A model generated the notes under the pieces. It did no database searches and was not told where the DNA came from. It saw only the letters and a program-made list of their open reading frames with translations. From a virus: a stretch of 55,193 nucleotides of DNA. Positions 4,941 through 55,193 of this stretch are shown here, in pieces. The translations under genes were made by a program, and so were the position numbers. Location: IMG/VR virus record IMGVR_UViG_3300031454_000005, positions 1 through 55,193 of that record. The stretch is one strand, 5' to 3'. Each line of letters begins with the position of its first letter. The first letter of the stretch is position 1.

Positions 4941-6070
4941 CGATGCCCGTTTACCCCGCGCCCGAACTGATCAGTGGCGCCTACGCGATGCGGATGGAGC
5001 TGTGGCGGGCCGACCGCTACGGCCGGAAGCTGGAGCGCCTGAGCGACCGGCGACCGGTCTCCGGCTCGATCAGCTTCAACGAGGACAACGAGTTCAAGCG
5101 GCAGCTGTCGCTCACCATCGAGGATCCCGGCGCGCTGCGCCCGTTCCAGGACTTCGTCATCCCGACCATCGCCCTGGCGAAGCCCTTCGGTGCGGTCGAG
5201 GAGCGCAACCTCGGCCATTTCCTCATTACGCCGCCTGCCCAGTCGGTCGCGACCGGACGCCGCACCGGTCAAATCGAGGCCCGGGACAGCACCATCCTGC
5301 TGGCCCGCCGGCAGGTCGGGGACTTCACGCGGCCGGCCGGGGCGGATGTCGGCCGGGTCGCCTACGACCTGGCACTGACGGCCGGGTTCCTTCCCGAGCA
5401 GCTGGACATCCCCGTCGATACCGGCGTCGCGCTGGATCAGGACTACCGACCGTCACCGGGCGCGGTCGTCCTGGTCGAGGTGAACACGCTGCTCAACGCC
5501 GGCAACTGCTACACGGTCTGGGGGACGGGCAACGGGCTGGTGAAGTCGGCCCGCTACCAGGACCCGTCGCGGGGCGTGGCCAACCGACGGTACTCGACCG
5601 AGTCGGGCCTGGAGATCGTGCCGCCGATCACCGAGACGCCCAGCTGGGACAGCCTGCGCAACGCCGTCACGGTCCGCAACCTCCGGCCCGGCCAGCCGCC
5701 GATCTGGTGGACCGCCCGGATCACCAACCGGAACCACCCGCTCTATTTCGATCCGGACGACTCGAGCGTCGGCTTCGGCAAGGAGTGGAGCGGGCCGCCC
5801 GTCGACAACAGCCAGATCCCCGATGAGGCGGCGGCGAAGGCGCTGGCCGAGAGCCTGCTCGCCGCCGGCGCCAGCTACTACCGCAAGCTCGCGGTCACGA
5901 CCGTGGTGGACATCGACGCCGGCGGGCACGACCTCATCGAGCTCGACATCCGCAACGGACGCGAAGTGCTCTACGACGGTCTCTGGCGCCGCCGCACCTG
6001 GCGGATCGCGCTCCAGGGGATCAGCGCCACAACGGAATCAGATCTCTATCGCTCGGAGGACTGGCAATGA
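4937..6070 (+). CDS. Minor tail protein (tail tip/baseplate component)
   Basis: ATGA start/stop overlap with the upstream gene; 377 aa. Second gene after the TMP in a tail module. No specific motif recognised. Confidence 0.6.
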   Translation: MTMPVYPAPELISGAYAMRMELWRADRYGRKLERLSDRRPVSGSISFNEDNEFKRQLSLTIEDPGALRPFQDFVIPTIALAKPFGAVEERNLGHFLITPPAQSVATGRRTGQIEARDSTILLARRQVGDFTRPAGADVGRVAYDLALTAGFLPEQLDIPVDTGVALDQDYRPSPGAVVLVEVNTLLNAGNCYTVWGTGNGLVKSARYQDPSRGVANRRYSTESGLEIVPPITETPSWDSLRNAVTVRNLRPGQPPIWWTARITNRNHPLYFDPDDSSVGFGKEWSGPPVDNSQIPDEAAAKALAESLLAAGASYYRKLAVTTVVDIDAGGHDLIELDIRNGREVLYDGLWRRRTWRIALQGISATTESDLYRSEDWQ

Positions 6071-12495: not shown

Positions 12496-13227
12496 ATGAC
12501 TGTTCGTCCATTAGGGAGACTAGTACCGCCAGACGATAACCACATTCGTAGTTATCCGATGCGTCGGTTAGCTGCTCCGCCAGACGTTTGTGAGCGGACG
12601 CTGTCGCTCAGCAGTCGGCACCGCAGATTCTACGATCAGGGCGCTACCTCGATGTGCGTCGGCTATTCGTCATCGCAGGAGCGATCCCTGTCCGAACGCA
12701 TCACCTTTGACCCCATCTGGTTGTACCGGCAGTGCAAGAATCGCGACAGCATTCCCAACGAGGACGGCACGTTCCTCCGGGTCGCCTACGACGTGTTGCG
12801 GGAGCAGGGCGCCCGCAAGGCCGGGGCGGCCGGACCGGACCCGCGGTACGGCGTTGAGCGCAACGAGTGGGCCACATCGGTCGACGACATCCGCCACGCC
12901 ATCGCCGAGGGCCGGGCGGTGGTGATGGGCACGAACTGGTACCGCCGGATGTTCACCCCCGAACGGCGCAACGGCCTGTACTGGCTGCCGGACGGCGGCG
13001 GCGACCTCGGGCGGCTGTCCGGTGGCCACGCCTACATCCTCAACCGGGTCAGCGACCGGTACGAGGCGTTCGCCACTCCCAACTCATGGGGGCCGAGTGA
13101 CCGCGACTGGCACCCGGACGAATCCGGCTGGCCGGTCTCAATGATTCCGTTCAGCCTCATCGAGCGGCTGCTCGCAGAAGACGGGGAATGCGTCCTCGTC
13201 GTCGACCGAAAGGAGACGCAGACATGA
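12496..13227 (+). CDS. Endolysin, papain-like cysteine peptidase domain protein
   Basis: GGAGG lies 7 nt upstream of the ATG. Candidate Cys nucleophile in QGATSMCVGYS and His in SGGHAYIL; NSWG motif present. Adjacent to the amidase and holin. Confidence 0.7.
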   Translation: MTVRPLGRLVPPDDNHIRSYPMRRLAAPPDVCERTLSLSSRHRRFYDQGATSMCVGYSSSQERSLSERITFDPIWLYRQCKNRDSIPNEDGTFLRVAYDVLREQGARKAGAAGPDPRYGVERNEWATSVDDIRHAIAEGRAVVMGTNWYRRMFTPERRNGLYWLPDGGGDLGRLSGGHAYILNRVSDRYEAFATPNSWGPSDRDWHPDESGWPVSMIPFSLIERLLAEDGECVLVVDRKETQT

Positions 13228-14168
13228 CCACGCTCACCTTCGGCAACGTTCCGGCACCGGGCATGGACATCATGGACATCCCGTCCAGCGTCAATACGGC
13301 CTGGGACGATTTGGGCCAGAGAGTCCCGAAATTCGTCGTTCTTCACCGGATGTACGGGACCCTGACCGGGACTGACGCCTATTTCCGCACCGACGCCCGG
13401 ACGAAGGCCCTCACGGACTACGGCATGGACCAGAGCACCGGCCGGATCATCCGGTGGAACGACCCGTGGGGGCGGCGGGCGGCGTGGGCCAGCGGGCCCT
13501 ACCAGTCGCCCAGCGGGGACGGCCCCGCCATCGTGGCGAAGCTCGGGATTGCGGCGATCAACCGGGATGGCGTCTCCATCGAGATCGCGGGGAGTGGCGG
13601 CGATCCCGTCAGCGCCACGGCTTACGGGGAGCTTGTCGCGCTCGTCGCTTGGCACGCCGACCGGGCGAAAGTGCCGCACACCCAGTTCCCGATCAACCCG
13701 GCGACCGGCCTGACATTCGTCATGTGGCACGGGGAGTTCAACGGCCAGAAGCGCGACACCTGCCCCGGCTCCGTCGTCGCGGCGTTCACCGACCGGCTCA
13801 TCACCGATGTCACCGCATTGCTTAAGCATCACCAGGAGGCGGTTACCGTGGCGGTCGCTGCGGCGCCGGTCCCGTCGCCCCCCGTGGCATCAGTAGAGCC
13901 GCCCACCGCACTCGCGCTCCCGGCCGGTGTCACGCTGGCGATGATGGGGGACTGGTTCGGGGCCGTCGCCCCGAGCGGAGCACAGTCCTCCACGTTCCGG
14001 TTCGATCCCGCGGGACCGCTGACCAAGCTGTGGCTGGCGCGAGGCAAGCGACTGGGCGTGTGGCCGCAACTGCGTGAAGTGACGCAGACCGGCAATGTCC
14101 GCGTCTTCAGTTTTGAGGATGGCTATCGAGTGATCGCTGGGCCGGATGGTCTGAAGGAGGCCGCCTGA
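13224..14168 (+). CDS. Endolysin, N-acetylmuramoyl-L-alanine amidase (Amidase_2/PGRP-like) with a C-terminal putative wall-binding region
   Basis: ATGA overlap with the peptidase gene. Motifs FVVLHRMYG, GVSIEIAG and HGEF...CPG. A Pro/Ala linker (AAAPVPSPPVASVEPP) is followed by a domain of about 90 aa. Confidence 0.7.
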   Translation: MTTLTFGNVPAPGMDIMDIPSSVNTAWDDLGQRVPKFVVLHRMYGTLTGTDAYFRTDARTKALTDYGMDQSTGRIIRWNDPWGRRAAWASGPYQSPSGDGPAIVAKLGIAAINRDGVSIEIAGSGGDPVSATAYGELVALVAWHADRAKVPHTQFPINPATGLTFVMWHGEFNGQKRDTCPGSVVAAFTDRLITDVTALLKHHQEAVTVAVAAAPVPSPPVASVEPPTALALPAGVTLAMMGDWFGAVAPSGAQSSTFRFDPAGPLTKLWLARGKRLGVWPQLREVTQTGNVRVFSFEDGYRVIAGPDGLKEAA

Positions 14169-14574: not shown

Positions 14575-15024
14575 CTATCCCGCGATCGGCGCGACCTCAT
14601 CCGGGTCGAGGTCGCGTTGCCGGGCCAGTTCACGGAGGGCCAGCCAGACAGAGCCGGGAATCGGGTTCCGGCCGGCCTCCCACCGGGCGACGGCGTCACG
14701 GGTGAGGCCGAGGGCGGCGGCGAGCTCGGTCTGGGTGAGGCCGAGGAGCGCACGGGCGCGGCGGATGCGGTCGGCCGGGTCCCGCCGGTCGAGCGGAATG
14801 CCCGCGGCGAACGCGTCGACGACGGCCTGGAGGTCGGGAAACGTCGCGCTGATCGGCTCTCCATCGAACGTCGTGTGTGACCAGGCGTCGATCAGCCCGT
14901 CGTCATTCCGCTCCCAAAAGCCGAGCGTGTGCTCGTCGCCCCGGAGGATGCTGCCCTCGCGGGTGTTCAGGTTGGATTCGGTCCGGGCACGGATACGGCC
15001 GTTGCTGCCGTGGTACGGGTTCAT
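14575..15024 (-). CDS. XRE-family HTH protein with an unknown ~90-aa N-terminal domain
   Basis: The C-terminal IRRARALLGLTQTELAAALGLTRDAVARWEAGRNPIPG is a typical Cro/C1-type HTH. 149 aa. Confidence 0.7.
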   Translation of the reverse strand: MNPYHGSNGRIRARTESNLNTREGSILRGDEHTLGFWERNDDGLIDAWSHTTFDGEPISATFPDLQAVVDAFAAGIPLDRRDPADRIRRARALLGLTQTELAAALGLTRDAVARWEAGRNPIPGSVWLALRELARQRDLDPDEVAPIAG

Positions 15025-15102
15025 GGTATCGTCCTCTCGTCATTGTCCGTGACAGCCAGCGGCCCGGCGGGGAACCATCCCGCCGGGCCGCTGCGTTGCC
15101 GG

Positions 15103-15459
15103 TTACTCCTCCCAGCGCGGCTCGACGGGGATGTTGCCGACCGCATCGAAGATCGCTCGGGCGGTCAGGCCGTCCGGCTGCGCCTGGAAGCGGCGACCGA
15201 TGACCCGGTCGATCTCGGCATCGACATCGACCAGATCGAGCTGCGCGTCATCGGCGAGGCGGCGGGCGTGGGCGAGGATGCCCTGGCTGTGATCGACGGC
15301 GACGGCGACGGAGCCGGTCACCGGCTCGTTGGCGTATCGCTCGCTGCGGGCGATCTGGTTGATCGTCGCGGCGGCGTGCTGGACCATGCCGCGGAGGACT
15401 TCGCGGATGTCCTCGACCTGATCGGTGGTGAGGGTGAGGGCGGTGGTCGTGTCGGTCAT
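15103..15459 (-). CDS. Hypothetical helical protein, first gene of a two-gene cassette
   Basis: ATG at 15459 with GGGAG 10 nt upstream; 118 aa. Strong promoter upstream (see 15504..15557). Confidence 0.6.
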   Translation of the reverse strand: MTDTTTALTLTTDQVEDIREVLRGMVQHAAATINQIARSERYANEPVTGSVAVAVDHSQGILAHARRLADDAQLDLVDVDAEIDRVIGRRFQAQPDGLTARAIFDAVGNIPVEPRWEE

Positions 15460-15503
15460 TTGTCCGTGACTCCCTTTGTGTGATCCGTCACCCCGGAGCG
15501 CCT

Positions 15504-15557
15504 TTGGCTCCGTTCGGTGTGTAGATATATTCTACATGAGGGAGGGGATGGCGTCAA
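15504..15557. promoter_or_regulatory. Two overlapping divergent sigma-70-type promoters centred on a perfect palindrome
   Basis: Minus strand: TTGACG (15557-15552), 17 nt, TAGAAT (15534-15529). Plus strand: TTGGCT (15504-15509), 16 nt, TATATT (15526-15531). The palindrome TGTAGA-tatat-TCTACA (15520-15536) covers both -10 boxes. Confidence 0.6.
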
Positions 15558-15762
15558 CAGGTTCTAGGCCGATTCCGGCACCACTATCCGGGCAATCGTT
15601 GTCCGAGGGTGTCGGTCCGTGCGGTGGAACCCGACGGTGATACTGATGGTGAGCCTTCGCCAATTCGTGTGGTATTATTCGCCCCGCACTGCCCCGGACC
15701 ACCCGGAAGAATCGGCATTTCGGCCTATCCCACGCAATCCCCCCATCTCCACCATGTCGAGC

Positions 15763-15797
15763 ACAGGTCCCGGTTCGCCGGGGCCTGTCGCTGTTTT
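15763..15797 (+). terminator. Intrinsic terminator (11-bp stem, UUCG loop, U-tract on the + strand)
   Basis: ACAGGTCCCGG ttcg CCGGGGCCTGT followed by cgcTGTTTTc. Lies 59 nt beyond the int stop, so it could also act as a U-less hairpin terminator for int on the - strand. Confidence 0.6.
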
Positions 15798-15855
15798 CGG
15801 GCGGGCGATGGTGAAATCGATGGTGAGGAAGGACCGATTTTCGGCATGACAAGAC

Positions 15856-17043
15856 TCATGTTGTCGTACTTCCCGCCGCCCCGAACAGCCGATCACCGAG
15901 GTCGTCGGCGGCGCGGCGGTGGTCGTCCCGCGAGGTGTGGCTGTAGAGATCGAGGGTGATCTGGACGGAGCGGTGGCCCAGCCGCTCGGAGACCAGCTTG
16001 ACGTTCGTCCCGGCCCGAACTTCCAGGGTGGCATTCGTGTGCCTGAGCTGGTGTAACGTGATCGGGGTGACGCCGGTGGTCTCGATCAGACCGGCGTGAA
16101 CGCGCTGCCAGGTCGTGCGGGCGAGGAAGCGCCCGTCGCCGCGGTCGAAGACCATGCCGTCGTCGTGCCAGACGGCCGAGGCCAGGCGGCGGCGCTTCTG
16201 CTCGGTCGACCAGGCACGCAGGGCCGCGACGGCGGACGCGGGGATGGCGTTCTCCCGTTCCCGGCCGGTCTTGGTGGACTCGCCCATCACGACATGGCCG
16301 GCCAGGTCCTTCGTGAGAGAGCGCTGGACCGTGATGATGCCGGCATCGAGATCGACGTCGGCCCACTGGATGGCGCAGAGCTCACCCGGCCGCATCCCGG
16401 TCGAGAGCGCGACCCGGTAGAAGGCGTCCCACATGGGCTCGCCGGCCAGCGTCACGATGACCCGCTGGACCTCGGCGACGGACCAGGTCGGGATCTTCTT
16501 CTTCCGGGCGATGGGGTAGCGCAGCCCGACGGCCGGGTTGACCGGGATGATGCCGAGCCGGGCGGCCTCGGCCAGCGCGGCGGTCAGGACGCGGCCGCTG
16601 TTCTCGATCGTGTTGGGGCCGTACTTGCGCCGCCGGGCGTCGTCGATCCAGTGCTGGATCCGCCCCGTCGTCAGACCCTCGATCCGGAGCGTGCCGAGGT
16701 CGGGGTAGATCAGGCGCTCGGCCCGTTGGCGGTAGGCGGCGTGGGTGGCCGGCTTCCAGCGGCCCTCGCCGCGGTCGAGGTAGTCGCCGACGGCGTCCTT
16801 CACCGTCATGTTGGAGGGCGGGACGTAGCGGCCGTGGCGCTTCTTACGAGCGACGTCGCGCAAATGGTCCTCGGCGGCGTCCTGGTCGGGAAAGGACTTC
16901 GAGCGCCAGATCGTATGCCCGGTGTCCTGCGGCTCCGGCCAGCGGGCCCGGACCCGTTCGGTCCCATCGGTCAGCTGGTAGCTGAGCACGTAGCCGTCCC
17001 CGTAGCGGACGCCCTCGCGCCGGCGTGGTTCTCGACGTGCCAT
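15856..17043 (-). CDS. int: Tyrosine integrase (site-specific recombinase, phage integrase family)
   Basis: 395 aa. C-terminal HQLRHTNATL ... LGHRSVQITLDLYSH matches the R-H-R-Y catalytic region. The N-terminus has a SAM-like/arm-binding style region. Confidence 0.9.
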   Translation of the reverse strand: MARREPRRREGVRYGDGYVLSYQLTDGTERVRARWPEPQDTGHTIWRSKSFPDQDAAEDHLRDVARKKRHGRYVPPSNMTVKDAVGDYLDRGEGRWKPATHAAYRQRAERLIYPDLGTLRIEGLTTGRIQHWIDDARRRKYGPNTIENSGRVLTAALAEAARLGIIPVNPAVGLRYPIARKKKIPTWSVAEVQRVIVTLAGEPMWDAFYRVALSTGMRPGELCAIQWADVDLDAGIITVQRSLTKDLAGHVVMGESTKTGRERENAIPASAVAALRAWSTEQKRRRLASAVWHDDGMVFDRGDGRFLARTTWQRVHAGLIETTGVTPITLHQLRHTNATLEVRAGTNVKLVSERLGHRSVQITLDLYSHTSRDDHRRAADDLGDRLFGAAGSTTT

Positions 17044-17261
17044 CAGTCGTCCCGCTCCCGGGATGGCCGCACGGGCCGCGGCGAGACCGGGACCACCAGC
17101 CCGACCGAACCGTCGCCACTGGCCGGGGAACGACGGTCGAGCAGCGCCCCGATCAGCGTGATCGCCACGTCGAGGTCGCCGTCGTCGAGCTGCTGAATCA
17201 GGTTCTCGAGGTGGGTGAACTTGTCGCGGGCGTGGTTGAACGTCAGGACGGTGTCGGTCAT
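17043..17261 (-). CDS. Hypothetical protein translationally coupled to int
   Basis: Its stop overlaps the int ATG by 1 nt (TGATG); 72 aa. No recognised Xis-type HTH. Confidence 0.5.
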   Translation of the reverse strand: MTDTVLTFNHARDKFTHLENLIQQLDDGDLDVAITLIGALLDRRSPASGDGSVGLVVPVSPRPVRPSRERDD

Positions 17262-52718: not shown

Positions 52719-55193
52719 ATGAGTGACGGAGCTTTAGGGGGCGCCAAAGCCACCATCAGCCTCGACGCCAAGGGGGCGATCGCTGCACTAAAAGAGTTCG
52801 GCAGCGCCGCCGACCAGACGATGCGGTCGGTCGGGCAATCGGGCACCCAGGCGGCCGGTGGCTTTGCATCGTTCGAGAAGACACTCAGCAGCAGTAACGT
52901 CCAGGCGGCTGGCGGTGCCCTGGCCGGGATCGGTGCCGCCGTCGGGCTGATCGGCGGCTTCGCGATCAACAGCGCCATGCAGTTCGATCAGGGCATGGCC
53001 AATGTCCGGGCGGCGACCGGCGCGACGGGGGTCGAGTTCGACAGCCTCCGCAACCTCGCGCTCCAGATCGGCAAGGACACCAGCTTCAGCGCGAACGAGG
53101 CCACCCTCGCGATCGAGGAGCTGGCCAAGGCGGGCACGTCCACGACGGACATCCTCGGCGGTGCGGCCGAGGCCACGACGGCCCTCGCGGCTGCTGGCGG
53201 CGTGGACCTCCCGACCGCCGCGACGGTGATGTCGGCCGCACTCAACCAGTTCGGGCTCGCGGCCGGGGATGCGTCCGGGTACGTCGACGACATGGGGCAG
53301 AGCGTCAACAACGCCGCCCACGTCGCGGACGTGATCTCGGCCGCCGCGACGGCCTCCGCCACCGGCGTGACCGAGATGGGATCGTCGCTGTCGTACGTCG
53401 GGACCAGCGCGGCCGCTCTCGGCGTCCCCCTCGAGGACACGGCGACCGCGATCGCCCTCATGGCCAACCAGGGCATCGTCGGCTCGTCCGCGGGCACATC
53501 CCTCAACCAGGTCCTGCTCTCGCTCGCGAACCCGACGGCCAAGGCGGCGGGGGTGATGGGTGAGCTTGGCCTGTCCTTCACTGACCTGAACGGCAACATG
53601 CTGCCGCTGCCGGACATCATCGGCTCCGTGGCCACGGCCACCGAGGGGATGGGCACGGCCCAGCGTGCCGCCACGCTCGAAACGCTGTTCGGGGTCGAGG
53701 GCGGCCGGGCGATGAATGCCCTGTTGCCGTCCATGTCCGCCGAAGTGCAGGGCACGGCTGACTCCTGGGACGGCATGAACGCGTCCGTGACGCAGGTCGG
53801 CGCCGCCCAGGAGCAGGCTCAGGCCCGTCTCAACAGCACGTCCGGCCGGCTGGAGGCGATGAAGGGGTCGCTGGAGACCGTCGGAATCGTCATCGGCTCA
53901 AAGCTGCTCCCCGCCTTCGACGCCATCATCCTCGGCGCGACGAGCCTCCTTAACACCTTCCTGAACCTGCCCTCCGGCATCCAGACCGTCATCGCCGCCG
54001 TGGTTGGGGTGGCGGGTGCGTTCGCCGGGATCGCGGGCGCCGCCATCCTGATTGGTCCGCGGCTGATCCAGGTGGCCCAGGGGTTCCGCGTCATCTCCAT
54101 CGCCATGCGGGCGATGGTCGTCGGCAACCCGATCCTGCTGGCGATCGCGGCGGCCATCGGTCTCGTGCTGCTTGCGGTCGCCGCCTACAAGACCAACTTC
54201 CTCGGTTTCGGCGACGCGGTCCGGGCAGTCGGGAGCAAGATCAAGGACCTGCTCGCCCCATTCGGCCGACTCATCAACCTGTTCCAGAACTTCCGCACCT
54301 TCGGCATGAATCCGGTGCAGGCGGCGCTCCAGGCGCTCAAGGTCGCTTTTCCCGCGCTCGGCGGAGTCATCACCTCGATCCAGAACAAGGTCTCCCAGGT
54401 CACGGACATGTTCCATAACCTGACCGCCTTCGGCATGGACCCCGTCAAGGCGGCGGTGACGGCGCTCTCCGCGGCGTTCCCGCGACTCGGAGAGACGTTC
54501 GCACTGGTCGGATCGTTCATCGGCAACCTGGTCAGCATGTTCCAGAACCTCTGGGATGGTATCCAGCGCCTCGTCAGCGGTGATTTCTCCGGGGCATTCG
54601 ACGCGTTCAAGGCCGCTGGTCTTGACGCAATCCAGGTGATCTGGGACGGCATCCGAGTCCTGCCGACGTTGCTGCTCAACCTCCTGACCGGCATGAATTG
54701 GTCGGATATCGGCTCTAAGATCACGGACACTATCCGATCGGCCTTCGATGGGCTGCGATCCGGTGCAGGTGACCTGTGGTCCTGGCTCACCGACGGGATT
54801 CGGTCGGCGCTCCAGTCCATTTCCAGCGGCATCTTCGACTGGCTCAACAACACGAGTGCATCCATCACCAGTGGGCTGAGCGCCGCCTGGGACGCCATCA
54901 CCTCGCTGACATGGGATGACTTCATCCCGGACGTCGCCTGGGATGTCTTCATCGGAGCCATCAATCTCGCCACCAAGGTCGGCGACTTCTTGTGGGACAC
55001 ATTTGTGACGGCAGTTGACCTTGCCGTCAAGGTCGGTGCGTTTGCCTGGAGCGCATTCGTCACCGCCGTCGATCTCGCCAAGCGCGTCGGCGCCTTCGCG
55101 TGGTCCACATTCGTAACTGCAGTGGACCTCGCCGCCAAGGTCGGCGCCTTCGCGTGGTCCACATTCGTAACTGCAGTGGACCTCGCCGCCAAG
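52719..55193 (+). CDS. Tail tape measure protein, N-terminal 825 aa (continues at nt 47 after the 46-nt overlap)
   Basis: ATG at 52719. AMQFDQGMANVRAATGATGVEFDSLRNLALQIGKDTSFSANEATLAIEELAKAG matches the TP901-type TMP core. There is no stop before the window end, which is why the ORF is absent from the track. The frame is continuous with 2..2359. Confidence 0.85.
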   Translation, partial: MSDGALGGAKATISLDAKGAIAALKEFGSAADQTMRSVGQSGTQAAGGFASFEKTLSSSNVQAAGGALAGIGAAVGLIGGFAINSAMQFDQGMANVRAATGATGVEFDSLRNLALQIGKDTSFSANEATLAIEELAKAGTSTTDILGGAAEATTALAAAGGVDLPTAATVMSAALNQFGLAAGDASGYVDDMGQSVNNAAHVADVISAAATASATGVTEMGSSLSYVGTSAAALGVPLEDTATAIALMANQGIVGSSAGTSLNQVLLSLANPTAKAAGVMGELGLSFTDLNGNMLPLPDIIGSVATATEGMGTAQRAATLETLFGVEGGRAMNALLPSMSAEVQGTADSWDGMNASVTQVGAAQEQAQARLNSTSGRLEAMKGSLETVGIVIGSKLLPAFDAIILGATSLLNTFLNLPSGIQTVIAAVVGVAGAFAGIAGAAILIGPRLIQVAQGFRVISIAMRAMVVGNPILLAIAAAIGLVLLAVAAYKTNFLGFGDAVRAVGSKIKDLLAPFGRLINLFQNFRTFGMNPVQAALQALKVAFPALGGVITSIQNKVSQVTDMFHNLTAFGMDPVKAAVTALSAAFPRLGETFALVGSFIGNLVSMFQNLWDGIQRLVSGDFSGAFDAFKAAGLDAIQVIWDGIRVLPTLLLNLLTGMNWSDIGSKITDTIRSAFDGLRSGAGDLWSWLTDGIRSALQSISSGIFDWLNNTSASITSGLSAAWDAITSLTWDDFIPDVAWDVFIGAINLATKVGDFLWDTFVTAVDLAVKVGAFAWSAFVTAVDLAKRVGAFAWSTFVTAVDLAAKVGAFAWSTFVTAVDLAAK
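54901..55193 (+). repeat. 54-nt tandem coding repeats of the TMP, including two identical terminal units
   Basis: 55094-55139 equals 55148-55193 equals 1-46. The unit encodes VGAFAWSTFVTAVDLAAK. Confidence 0.9.

Follow-up and report, generated by a model that had tools for sequence, protein, structure and literature searches.

The 396-bp spacer between the 118-aa gene and the integrase gene of the virus record IMGVR_UViG_3300031454_000005 is best explained as an attP site recognized by a tyrosine integrase of the lambda type, one that uses arm sites and targets the 3' end of ssrA, the tmRNA gene of the host, a reading to which we assign a probability of roughly 0.88. An attP site had been raised in the initial annotation of the region together with a structured regulatory RNA, the explanation preferred at the time, and of the two it is attP that the evidence favors: a tyrosine integrase gene is directly adjacent, the core equals the terminus of a tmRNA gene, arm-type repeats flank this core, the layout recurs in relatives, and a lysogen of the same integrase family is located in ssrA. 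The features discussed below are collected in Table 1.

The window, that is, the whole stretch of DNA analysed, is an entire contig of 55,193 nt with a GC content of ~65%. Its two ends overlap by 46 nt, which is consistent with a circular assembly without proving it; as both termini of the contig fall within a 54-nt tandem repeat belonging to a coding region, the overlap may reflect the repeat as much as circularity. The plus strand carries tail and lysis genes up to ~14.5 kb (including an amidase at 13188-14168), and beyond this point the minus strand holds an Xre-type HTH gene, the 118-aa gene, the spacer, the integrase gene (int) and a 72-aa ORF. The integrase gene lies between lysis genes and early genes, and as integrase and lysis genes are neighbors, this is the arrangement of a phage genome (attP) and not of a prophage. 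Neither blastn of the spacer nor megablast of 25 kb gave a useful DNA relative among deposited phages, and the sole other copy of the region found was an identical contig (L003), also in the attP form. The nearest genomic relatives of the integrase are encoded by Thermomicrobiales/Chloroflexia MAGs (43% identity).

Table 1 Features of the putative attP region and its surroundings, with positions in the 55,193-nt window.
Feature	Position	Strand	Details
Terminal coding repeat	1-120 and 55034-55193		Peptide repeat about FAWSTFVTAVDLAAKVGA
Two-gene operon	14575-15459	-	118-aa protein (15459-15103); 149-aa Xre/MqsA-like HTH protein (15024-14575)
Rightward promoter-like sequence	15504-15531	+	TTGGCT-16-TATATT, 9/12; doubtful significance; -10 box in the AT centre of the palindrome
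Perfect palindrome	15520-15536	.	TGTAGAtatatTCTACA; over the -10 box
Leftward sigma-70-like promoter	15529-15557	-	TTGACG-17-TAGAAT, 10/12; for the 118-aa/Xre-HTH operon
Inverted GCCGA-type motif	15565-15578	+	TAGGCCGATTCCGG; beyond the distal arm pair; earlier proposed as 5' pairing partner
Int-distal arm-type site pair (putative)	15632-15653	-	Plus strand CGACGGTGATACTGATGGTGAG; ~85 nt from core
Two tandem GCCGA-type motifs	15703-15727	-	GGCCGAAAT GCCGATTCT on the minus strand; adjoin core; earlier proposed as pairing segments CCGGAAGAATCGGC and TCGGCCTA
attP core (putative)	15736-15754	+	AATCCCCCCATCTCCACCA; copy of tmRNA (ssrA) 3' terminus, 19 nt
Intrinsic terminator	15763-15797	+	11-bp stem, TTCG loop, T-tract; starts 8 nt after the tmRNA CCA
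Int-proximal arm-type site pair (putative)	15806-15827	-	Tandem TCACCATCG units, 12-bp period; plus strand CGATGGTGAAATCGATGGTGAG
Fourth GCCGA-type motif	15835-15846	-	GCCGAAAATCGG (CCGAnnnTCGG); immediately follows the int stop codon
Tyrosine integrase, 395 aa	15856-17043	-	Convergent with the ssrA fragment; PF00589 5.9e-24, phrog_1 3.4e-62
72-aa ORF	17043-17261	-	Overlaps the int start; candidate excisionase/RDF from position only

The putative core, AATCCCCCCATCTCCACCA, is found 102 nt from the int stop codon and consists of the last 3 nt of a T-loop, the 3' strand of a T-stem (CCCCC), the 3' strand of an acceptor stem (CATCTCC), the discriminator A and CCA. As this segment parses exactly as the end of a tmRNA and tmRNA contexts dominate its database matches (see below), the earlier statement that the spacer has no tRNA 3'-end-like core is wrong. 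The tmRNA-like segment lacks the 5' strand of the T-stem and most of the T-loop; no complete tRNA or tmRNA gene was found in the window by ARAGORN, and positions 14800-16500 gave no match in Rfam at E values up to 10. From 15755 onward the window reads TGTCGAGCACAGG..., and the tmRNA body sequence at the prospective join reads ...GGACGGGGGTTCGAAT. A search for the attB, attL or attR of the window phage with the junction pattern CCCCATCTCCACCATGTCGAGC returned no match in viral contigs and, in metagenome contigs, a single chance match inside an ABC-transporter ATPase gene.

Integrase relatives were obtained by exact-protein look-ups, after which the region downstream of int was read; a search of IMG/VR with the single Int protein returned only relatives with 27-30% identity. 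In the relative L061 (Int 56-58% identical), the 16-mer GGTGGAGATGGGGGGA follows just after a hairpin, and its reverse complement is found in the window within the core on the plus strand. IMG/VR was scanned for TCCCCCCATCTCCACC, and the 16-mer was present in at least 120 contigs. Among the matches listed it was mostly preceded by GGACGGGGGTTCGAn, corresponding to the tmRNA T-arm, and over the 16-mer ARAGORN called a tmRNA in 42 and a tRNA-Ala in 4 of the 120 listed contigs, most of the others being fragments or having the 16-mer at a contig end.

Five related phages allowed the extent of the conserved core to be delimited. A 15-nt block (TCCCCCCATCTCCAC) is invariant in these phages and the flanks differ; the variable T-loop base is A, C or T (AAT/ACT/ATT), and the same variation is seen among tmRNA genes, which indicates that the identity block starts in the T-loop and that each phage matches its own host. 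Positions 15738-15754 of the window match the tmRNA gene terminus of the lysogen L274 without a mismatch (17/17). tmRNA and tRNA-Ala have a common G3-U70 acceptor design, and the four tRNA-Ala contexts among the 120 listed would agree with an attP whose target is not ssrA but a tRNA-Ala gene identical to it in the 3' strands of acceptor and T-stem. We regard this as very unlikely, as most of the listed contexts are of the tmRNA type, the cores of the relatives differ only at the variable T-loop position in the way tmRNA genes do, and the one lysogen found in the integrase family sits in ssrA of a Thermomicrobiales-like host. The predominance of tmRNA contexts and the L274 lysogen thus point to ssrA rather than tRNA-Ala, with the qualification that the target of the window phage itself is deduced from the analogous case of an integrase with 45% identity, and that some tRNA-Ala genes, a minority, match the 19-mer as well.

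The organization around the core is shared with Int relatives that are 45-58% identical to the window Int (L061, L185-188, L189, L190/191 and L272). Reading from the int stop codon, a tandem pair with a 12-bp period is followed by a GC hairpin with its T-tract on the strand opposite to int, a gap of 6-11 nt and (G)GTGGAGATGGGGGGA, and a second copy of the tandem pair is found ~85-100 nt further on. No core could be read in L060, L062 and L184, as these contigs are truncated within ~100 nt of int; L062 retains a homologous hairpin. The lysogen L274 is a 37-kb JGI contig encoding an Int with 45% identity to that of the window, and here int is followed by two arm repeats (GAAATGGACGCC x2), the hairpin, an oppositely oriented tmRNA gene (5258-5620) and smpB, with ordinary cellular genes beyond. 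The tmRNA gene is full length (Rfam RF00023, 170.7 bits, E 1.6e-69; ARAGORN tag AKQPQLAYAA) and ends ...GGACGGGGGUUCGAUUCCCCCCAUCUCCACCA. The SmpB encoded next to it shares 68-75% identity with proteins that NCBI names Thermomicrobiales MAG SmpB, in agreement with the taxonomic signal of the window integrase.

More distant members of the family (41-43% identity) keep the layout and carry other tRNA 3' ends. The core of L273 (1610-1660) resembles the tRNA-Glu(CTC) that follows int in L004, a Thermomicrobiales MAG contig, and the family thus shows target switching on a constant scaffold. Still more distant Int relatives in bacterial genomes are convergent with a tRNA or tmRNA gene located 100-600 bp downstream. 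The same scaffold with a different tRNA 3' end (...GAATCCTCTCGTCGGCA) was also seen in L192 (4320-4350). tRNA-Glu, which L004 has downstream of int, was considered as the target of the window phage and rejected, as the window has no such sequence and tRNA-Glu belongs to the L273 branch. L004 (1880-1950) and a second Thermomicrobiales MAG contig, L005 (1295-1390), have a common stretch downstream of int with no equivalent in the window, comprising a hairpin followed by GTGAC(C)ACCGAgAAGG..CTTCGATG..TCCTC.GTGTAC and possibly a tiny ORF (MMPRSVPP.. / MHPQCTFP..). L004 additionally encodes a 156-aa ORF (1967-2437) between int and tRNA-Glu, with an N-terminus (GRWQSRWFDGEKYKAKTFPSREEAEDWL) similar to that of the integrase family and a C-terminus with a T5orf172/MUG113-type look, a domain also called beside attP in L190 and L191; this may be a free-standing arm-binding-domain protein.

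The two tandem pairs flanking the core of the window form a direct repeat with 18 of 22 positions matching, a level reached by 0 of 60 shuffles, and are separated by 174 bp from start to start; this repeat had been missed in the initial annotation. The five relatives have analogous tandem pairs in the same places, each of lineage-specific sequence, with a start-to-start spacing of 153-174 bp (L185, 166; L061, 166; L189, ~154; L272, 153-165; L190, 174). The repeat units of these lineages are TGCCGACYGATT, TTCCGACAGTAA, GCGAACTTCGAT and GTTGGAGCGGGC, that of the window being TCACCATCGATT. Lineage-specific repeats around a fixed core are what would be expected of arm-type sites co-evolving with the N-terminal domain of the integrase, the core being held fixed by the host target.

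The integrase itself is compatible with such an arrangement. A profile built from 25 family members aligns from residue ~78-80 onward to lambda Int starting at its residue 76, and the same profile aligns to the Tn1549 Int construct lacking an arm domain from residue 2 of the latter. As the alignment begins at lambda residue 76, the ~78 N-terminal amino acids of the window Int sit where an arm-binding domain would be found. This segment has conserved residues (G15, G17 and W35) and no match to a Pfam arm-binding family, and is consistent with, yet unproven as, an arm-binding domain. The 72-aa ORF gave no match to known families in Pfam, PHROGs or NCBIfam, and is 54% identical to a 67-aa ORF in the same position in L060 (5675-5878).

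A second type of repeated motif is found around the core. GCCGAWWH occurs in 20 copies in the 55-kb window, four of which fall within 15568-15846, and our best guess is that the GCCGA-type motifs are most likely bound by an accessory protein that bends DNA or confers directionality (an Xis/RDF or a host factor); that the product of the 72-aa ORF binds them is likewise a guess. Three of these motifs coincide with segments which had been interpreted in the initial annotation as long-range pairing partners in an RNA and, alternatively, as Int/Xis arm-type repeats. The complementary segments are present (15565-15572 with 15720-15727 and 15568-15575 with 15709-15716, each 8/8), and the complementarity of GGTCCG with CGGACC can likewise be read in the sequence, but the pairing does not exceed chance: among ungapped inverted matches of 14 nt the spacer reaches 11/14 at best, a value attained by 56 of 60 dinucleotide shuffles. 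The proposed partners thus hold up as repeated DNA motifs flanking the core, whereas as RNA pairing they are at chance level and unconserved.

At the left end of the spacer, both promoter-like sites and the palindrome described earlier are present. A distance of 70 nt, including AAAGGGAG, separates the leftward promoter from the downstream ATG at 15459, and the gene has a Shine-Dalgarno sequence. The sequence of the rightward promoter is there as well, but its 9/12 class occurs at about the chance rate (3 found in 20 kb vs 2.1 expected), and of the mutually exclusive divergent promoters proposed initially, only the leftward one has both a gene to serve and a score better than chance. The palindrome TGTAGAtatatTCTACA is unique in the window, with one other match at two mismatches vs 0.31 expected, and is probably the operator of the 118-aa/Xre operon, which would then be autoregulated by its HTH protein; a role as a general immunity operator was ruled out, as the palindrome does not recur elsewhere in the genome. 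Palindrome and leftward promoter would together constitute the control region of this operon, outside the recombination site. The 118-aa protein has no match in Pfam, PHROGs, NCBIfam or PADLOC. In a prophage, the operon would lie at the int-distal end under its own promoter, a position typical of accessory, toxin-antitoxin or exclusion genes expressed in lysogens.

The strong intrinsic terminator reported previously at the right end of the spacer was confirmed, with a hairpin at 15763-15788 (11 pairs, TTCG loop) followed by the tail CGCTGTTTTC. An equivalent hairpin and T-tract are found on the ssrA strand 6-11 nt after the core in L061, L185, L189, L190, L272 and L274. When the window and the five relatives were analysed with RNAalifold, the terminator hairpin was the only structure predicted, with 14 pairs of which 10 showed compensatory changes, and TCCCCCCATCTCCAC was the sole invariant sequence of the six-sequence alignment. 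The compensatory changes indicate that the terminator is real and under selection, and its orientation and fixed distance from the CCA argue for a role in terminating the rebuilt ssrA after integration. This role agrees with the known rule that islands use sequence of their own to restore the tRNA or tmRNA gene which they split (PMC4383910). Three Logan contigs of related phages, L062 (end 4994), L184 (end 6261) and L275 (end 4278), break off at the attP hairpin or core or shortly beyond; in the first two the hairpin is a perfect palindrome of 24-28 nt, and L275 runs 15 nt into the tmRNA body before ending. Assembly-graph branching between the attP and attL forms may account for these breaks, as may breakage at the palindrome.

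The terminator was also central to the structured RNA preferred in the initial annotation, a phage sRNA of ~260 nt running from the rightward promoter (TSS ~15538) to position 15797, which could coexist with attP. The promoter-like match and the terminator are in the right orientation for such a transcript, and the 263-nt plus strand folds better than its shuffled counterparts (z -3.38, 0 of 200 shuffles as good; minus strand z -1.46). With the terminator removed, however, z drops to -1.84 and 10 of 200 shuffles are as good (minus strand -0.43), and the terminator is itself accounted for by ssrA. The RNAalifold analysis gave no conserved pairing in the ~220 nt upstream of the hairpin, so that covariation across the relatives is confined to the terminator and does not extend to the long-range segments. 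The repeats of the relatives are direct and not inverted, the best inverted match and the rightward promoter class are both at chance level, the Rfam search gave sub-threshold noise only, and the putative attP core falls inside the paired segments of the predicted fold, in its outer helix (15544-15554/15732-15742). As a prophage places promoter and terminator at opposite ends, an RNA of this kind could only be made from the excised or replicating form, and nothing positive supports a transcript crossing attP in the replicating phage. Unconserved pairing and a core mapping onto the paired segments are both outcomes that the initial annotation had named as refuting the RNA. A structured RNA, with no pairing conserved in the five related phages, is therefore unlikely.

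A more specific variant, in which the rightward promoter is real, would have the 5' end of a ~260-nt RNA made during infection, GGGGAUG (15544-15550), pair with the tmRNA-derived 3' strand CAUCUCC-A-CCA as an acceptor-stem mimic with G3-U70, the alanine identity pair. The RNA would then engage AlaRS, SmpB or RNase P, either as a phage decoy or as a substrate, or would be a transcript controlling recombination at attP. The heptamer is the same as that which starts tmRNA, but it is absent from the five related attP regions, and with ~0.06 copies expected per 450 nt it is probably a chance occurrence; we consider this variant highly improbable. The possibility that GGGGATG at 15544 belongs to a tmRNA-like gene was rejected in view of the same absence (5/5 relatives). 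In the window, positions 15544-15561 (GGGGATGGCGTCAACAGG) resemble the tmRNA 5' end (GGGGAUGUCCGGUUUCGACAGG in L274), and the first 7 nt could pair with 15744-15750.

The spacer could also be imagined to hold a small protein gene, either a 76-aa ORF on the plus strand (15619-15849) or a 106-aa ORF on the minus strand (15852-15532), with the repeats being incidental. ORFs of such a size do occur on both strands, but at a GC content of 65% long ORFs are expected to arise spuriously, neither of the two matches any NCBIfam family, gene callers leave the region empty in the identical contig L003 as well as in the equivalent regions of the relatives, and conservation is limited to the 15-nt block without a reading frame. 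A protein gene in the spacer is thus scarcely credible.

With the spacer read as attP, the N-terminal domain of Int would bind the TCACCATCG repeats and its core-binding and catalytic domains would act on the core. Strand exchange would take place within the 17-19 bp common to phage and ssrA, starting in the T-loop, and upon integration the body of the host ssrA would be completed by the 19-nt terminus that the phage carries and followed by the terminator of the phage, leaving tmRNA intact. The displaced host 3' fragment would end up at the far junction, beside the 118-aa/Xre operon. Judging from the anatomy of the site, the phage terminator would end the rebuilt ssrA in the lysogen and keep the very active ssrA transcription from running antisense into the convergent int.

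The analysis fixes the annotation of the phage, with the predicted attP core, both arm-site pairs, the integrase and the candidate excisionase placed to the base, and predicts as host a Thermomicrobiales-like bacterium with an ssrA gene ending TTCGAATCCCCCCATCTCCACCA. The attP layout is compact and recognizable, and could be used to locate prophage ends in MAGs or to supply ssrA-targeting integrases. The arrangement as such is ordinary and reveals no new mechanism or new regulatory RNA: the integrase family, from phages of Thermomicrobiales-like Chloroflexota, is previously undescribed, whereas elements of this kind are well known (PMC4383910, PMC3146451). Elements with tyrosine integrases in tRNA and tmRNA genes are catalogued in Islander (PMC4383910), ssrA is a common integration target, also in Chloroflexota (PMC3146451), and insertion "sublocations" in tRNA and tmRNA genes are defined in work cited in PMC3146451.

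Compared to prophages and islands known from ssrA, the window has in common the adjacent tyrosine integrase gene, a copy of the ssrA 3' end by which the element restores the gene, an identity block starting in the T-loop, and an int that is convergent with ssrA in the lysogen (L274; Lactobacillus genomes). It differs in that the family derives from uncultured phages of Thermomicrobiales-like Chloroflexota with no close deposited relative, that the identity block is short (17-19 nt), and that a strong phage terminator is fixed 6-11 nt after the tmRNA end throughout the family. The site resembles attP of lambda in its size of ~200-280 bp, in the arm-type repeats on both sides of a short core, in the extra N-terminal segment that precedes the core-binding domain of Int (alignment from lambda residue 76), and in the small ORF at the place of xis. 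The lambda core, in contrast, lies between gal and bio and that of the window within an RNA gene; the putative arm sites of the window form tandem pairs (12-bp period) that point the same way on either side of the core, and the N-terminal domain of its Int is not recognizably related in sequence. The ssrA islands of Dehalococcoides (PMC3146451) are similar in having a Chloroflexota host, a single-copy ssrA target and insertion in or near the T-loop, but these are non-phage elements relying on a CcrB-like serine recombinase (DsiB), whereas the window represents a complete tailed phage that encodes a tyrosine integrase and has arm-type repeats.
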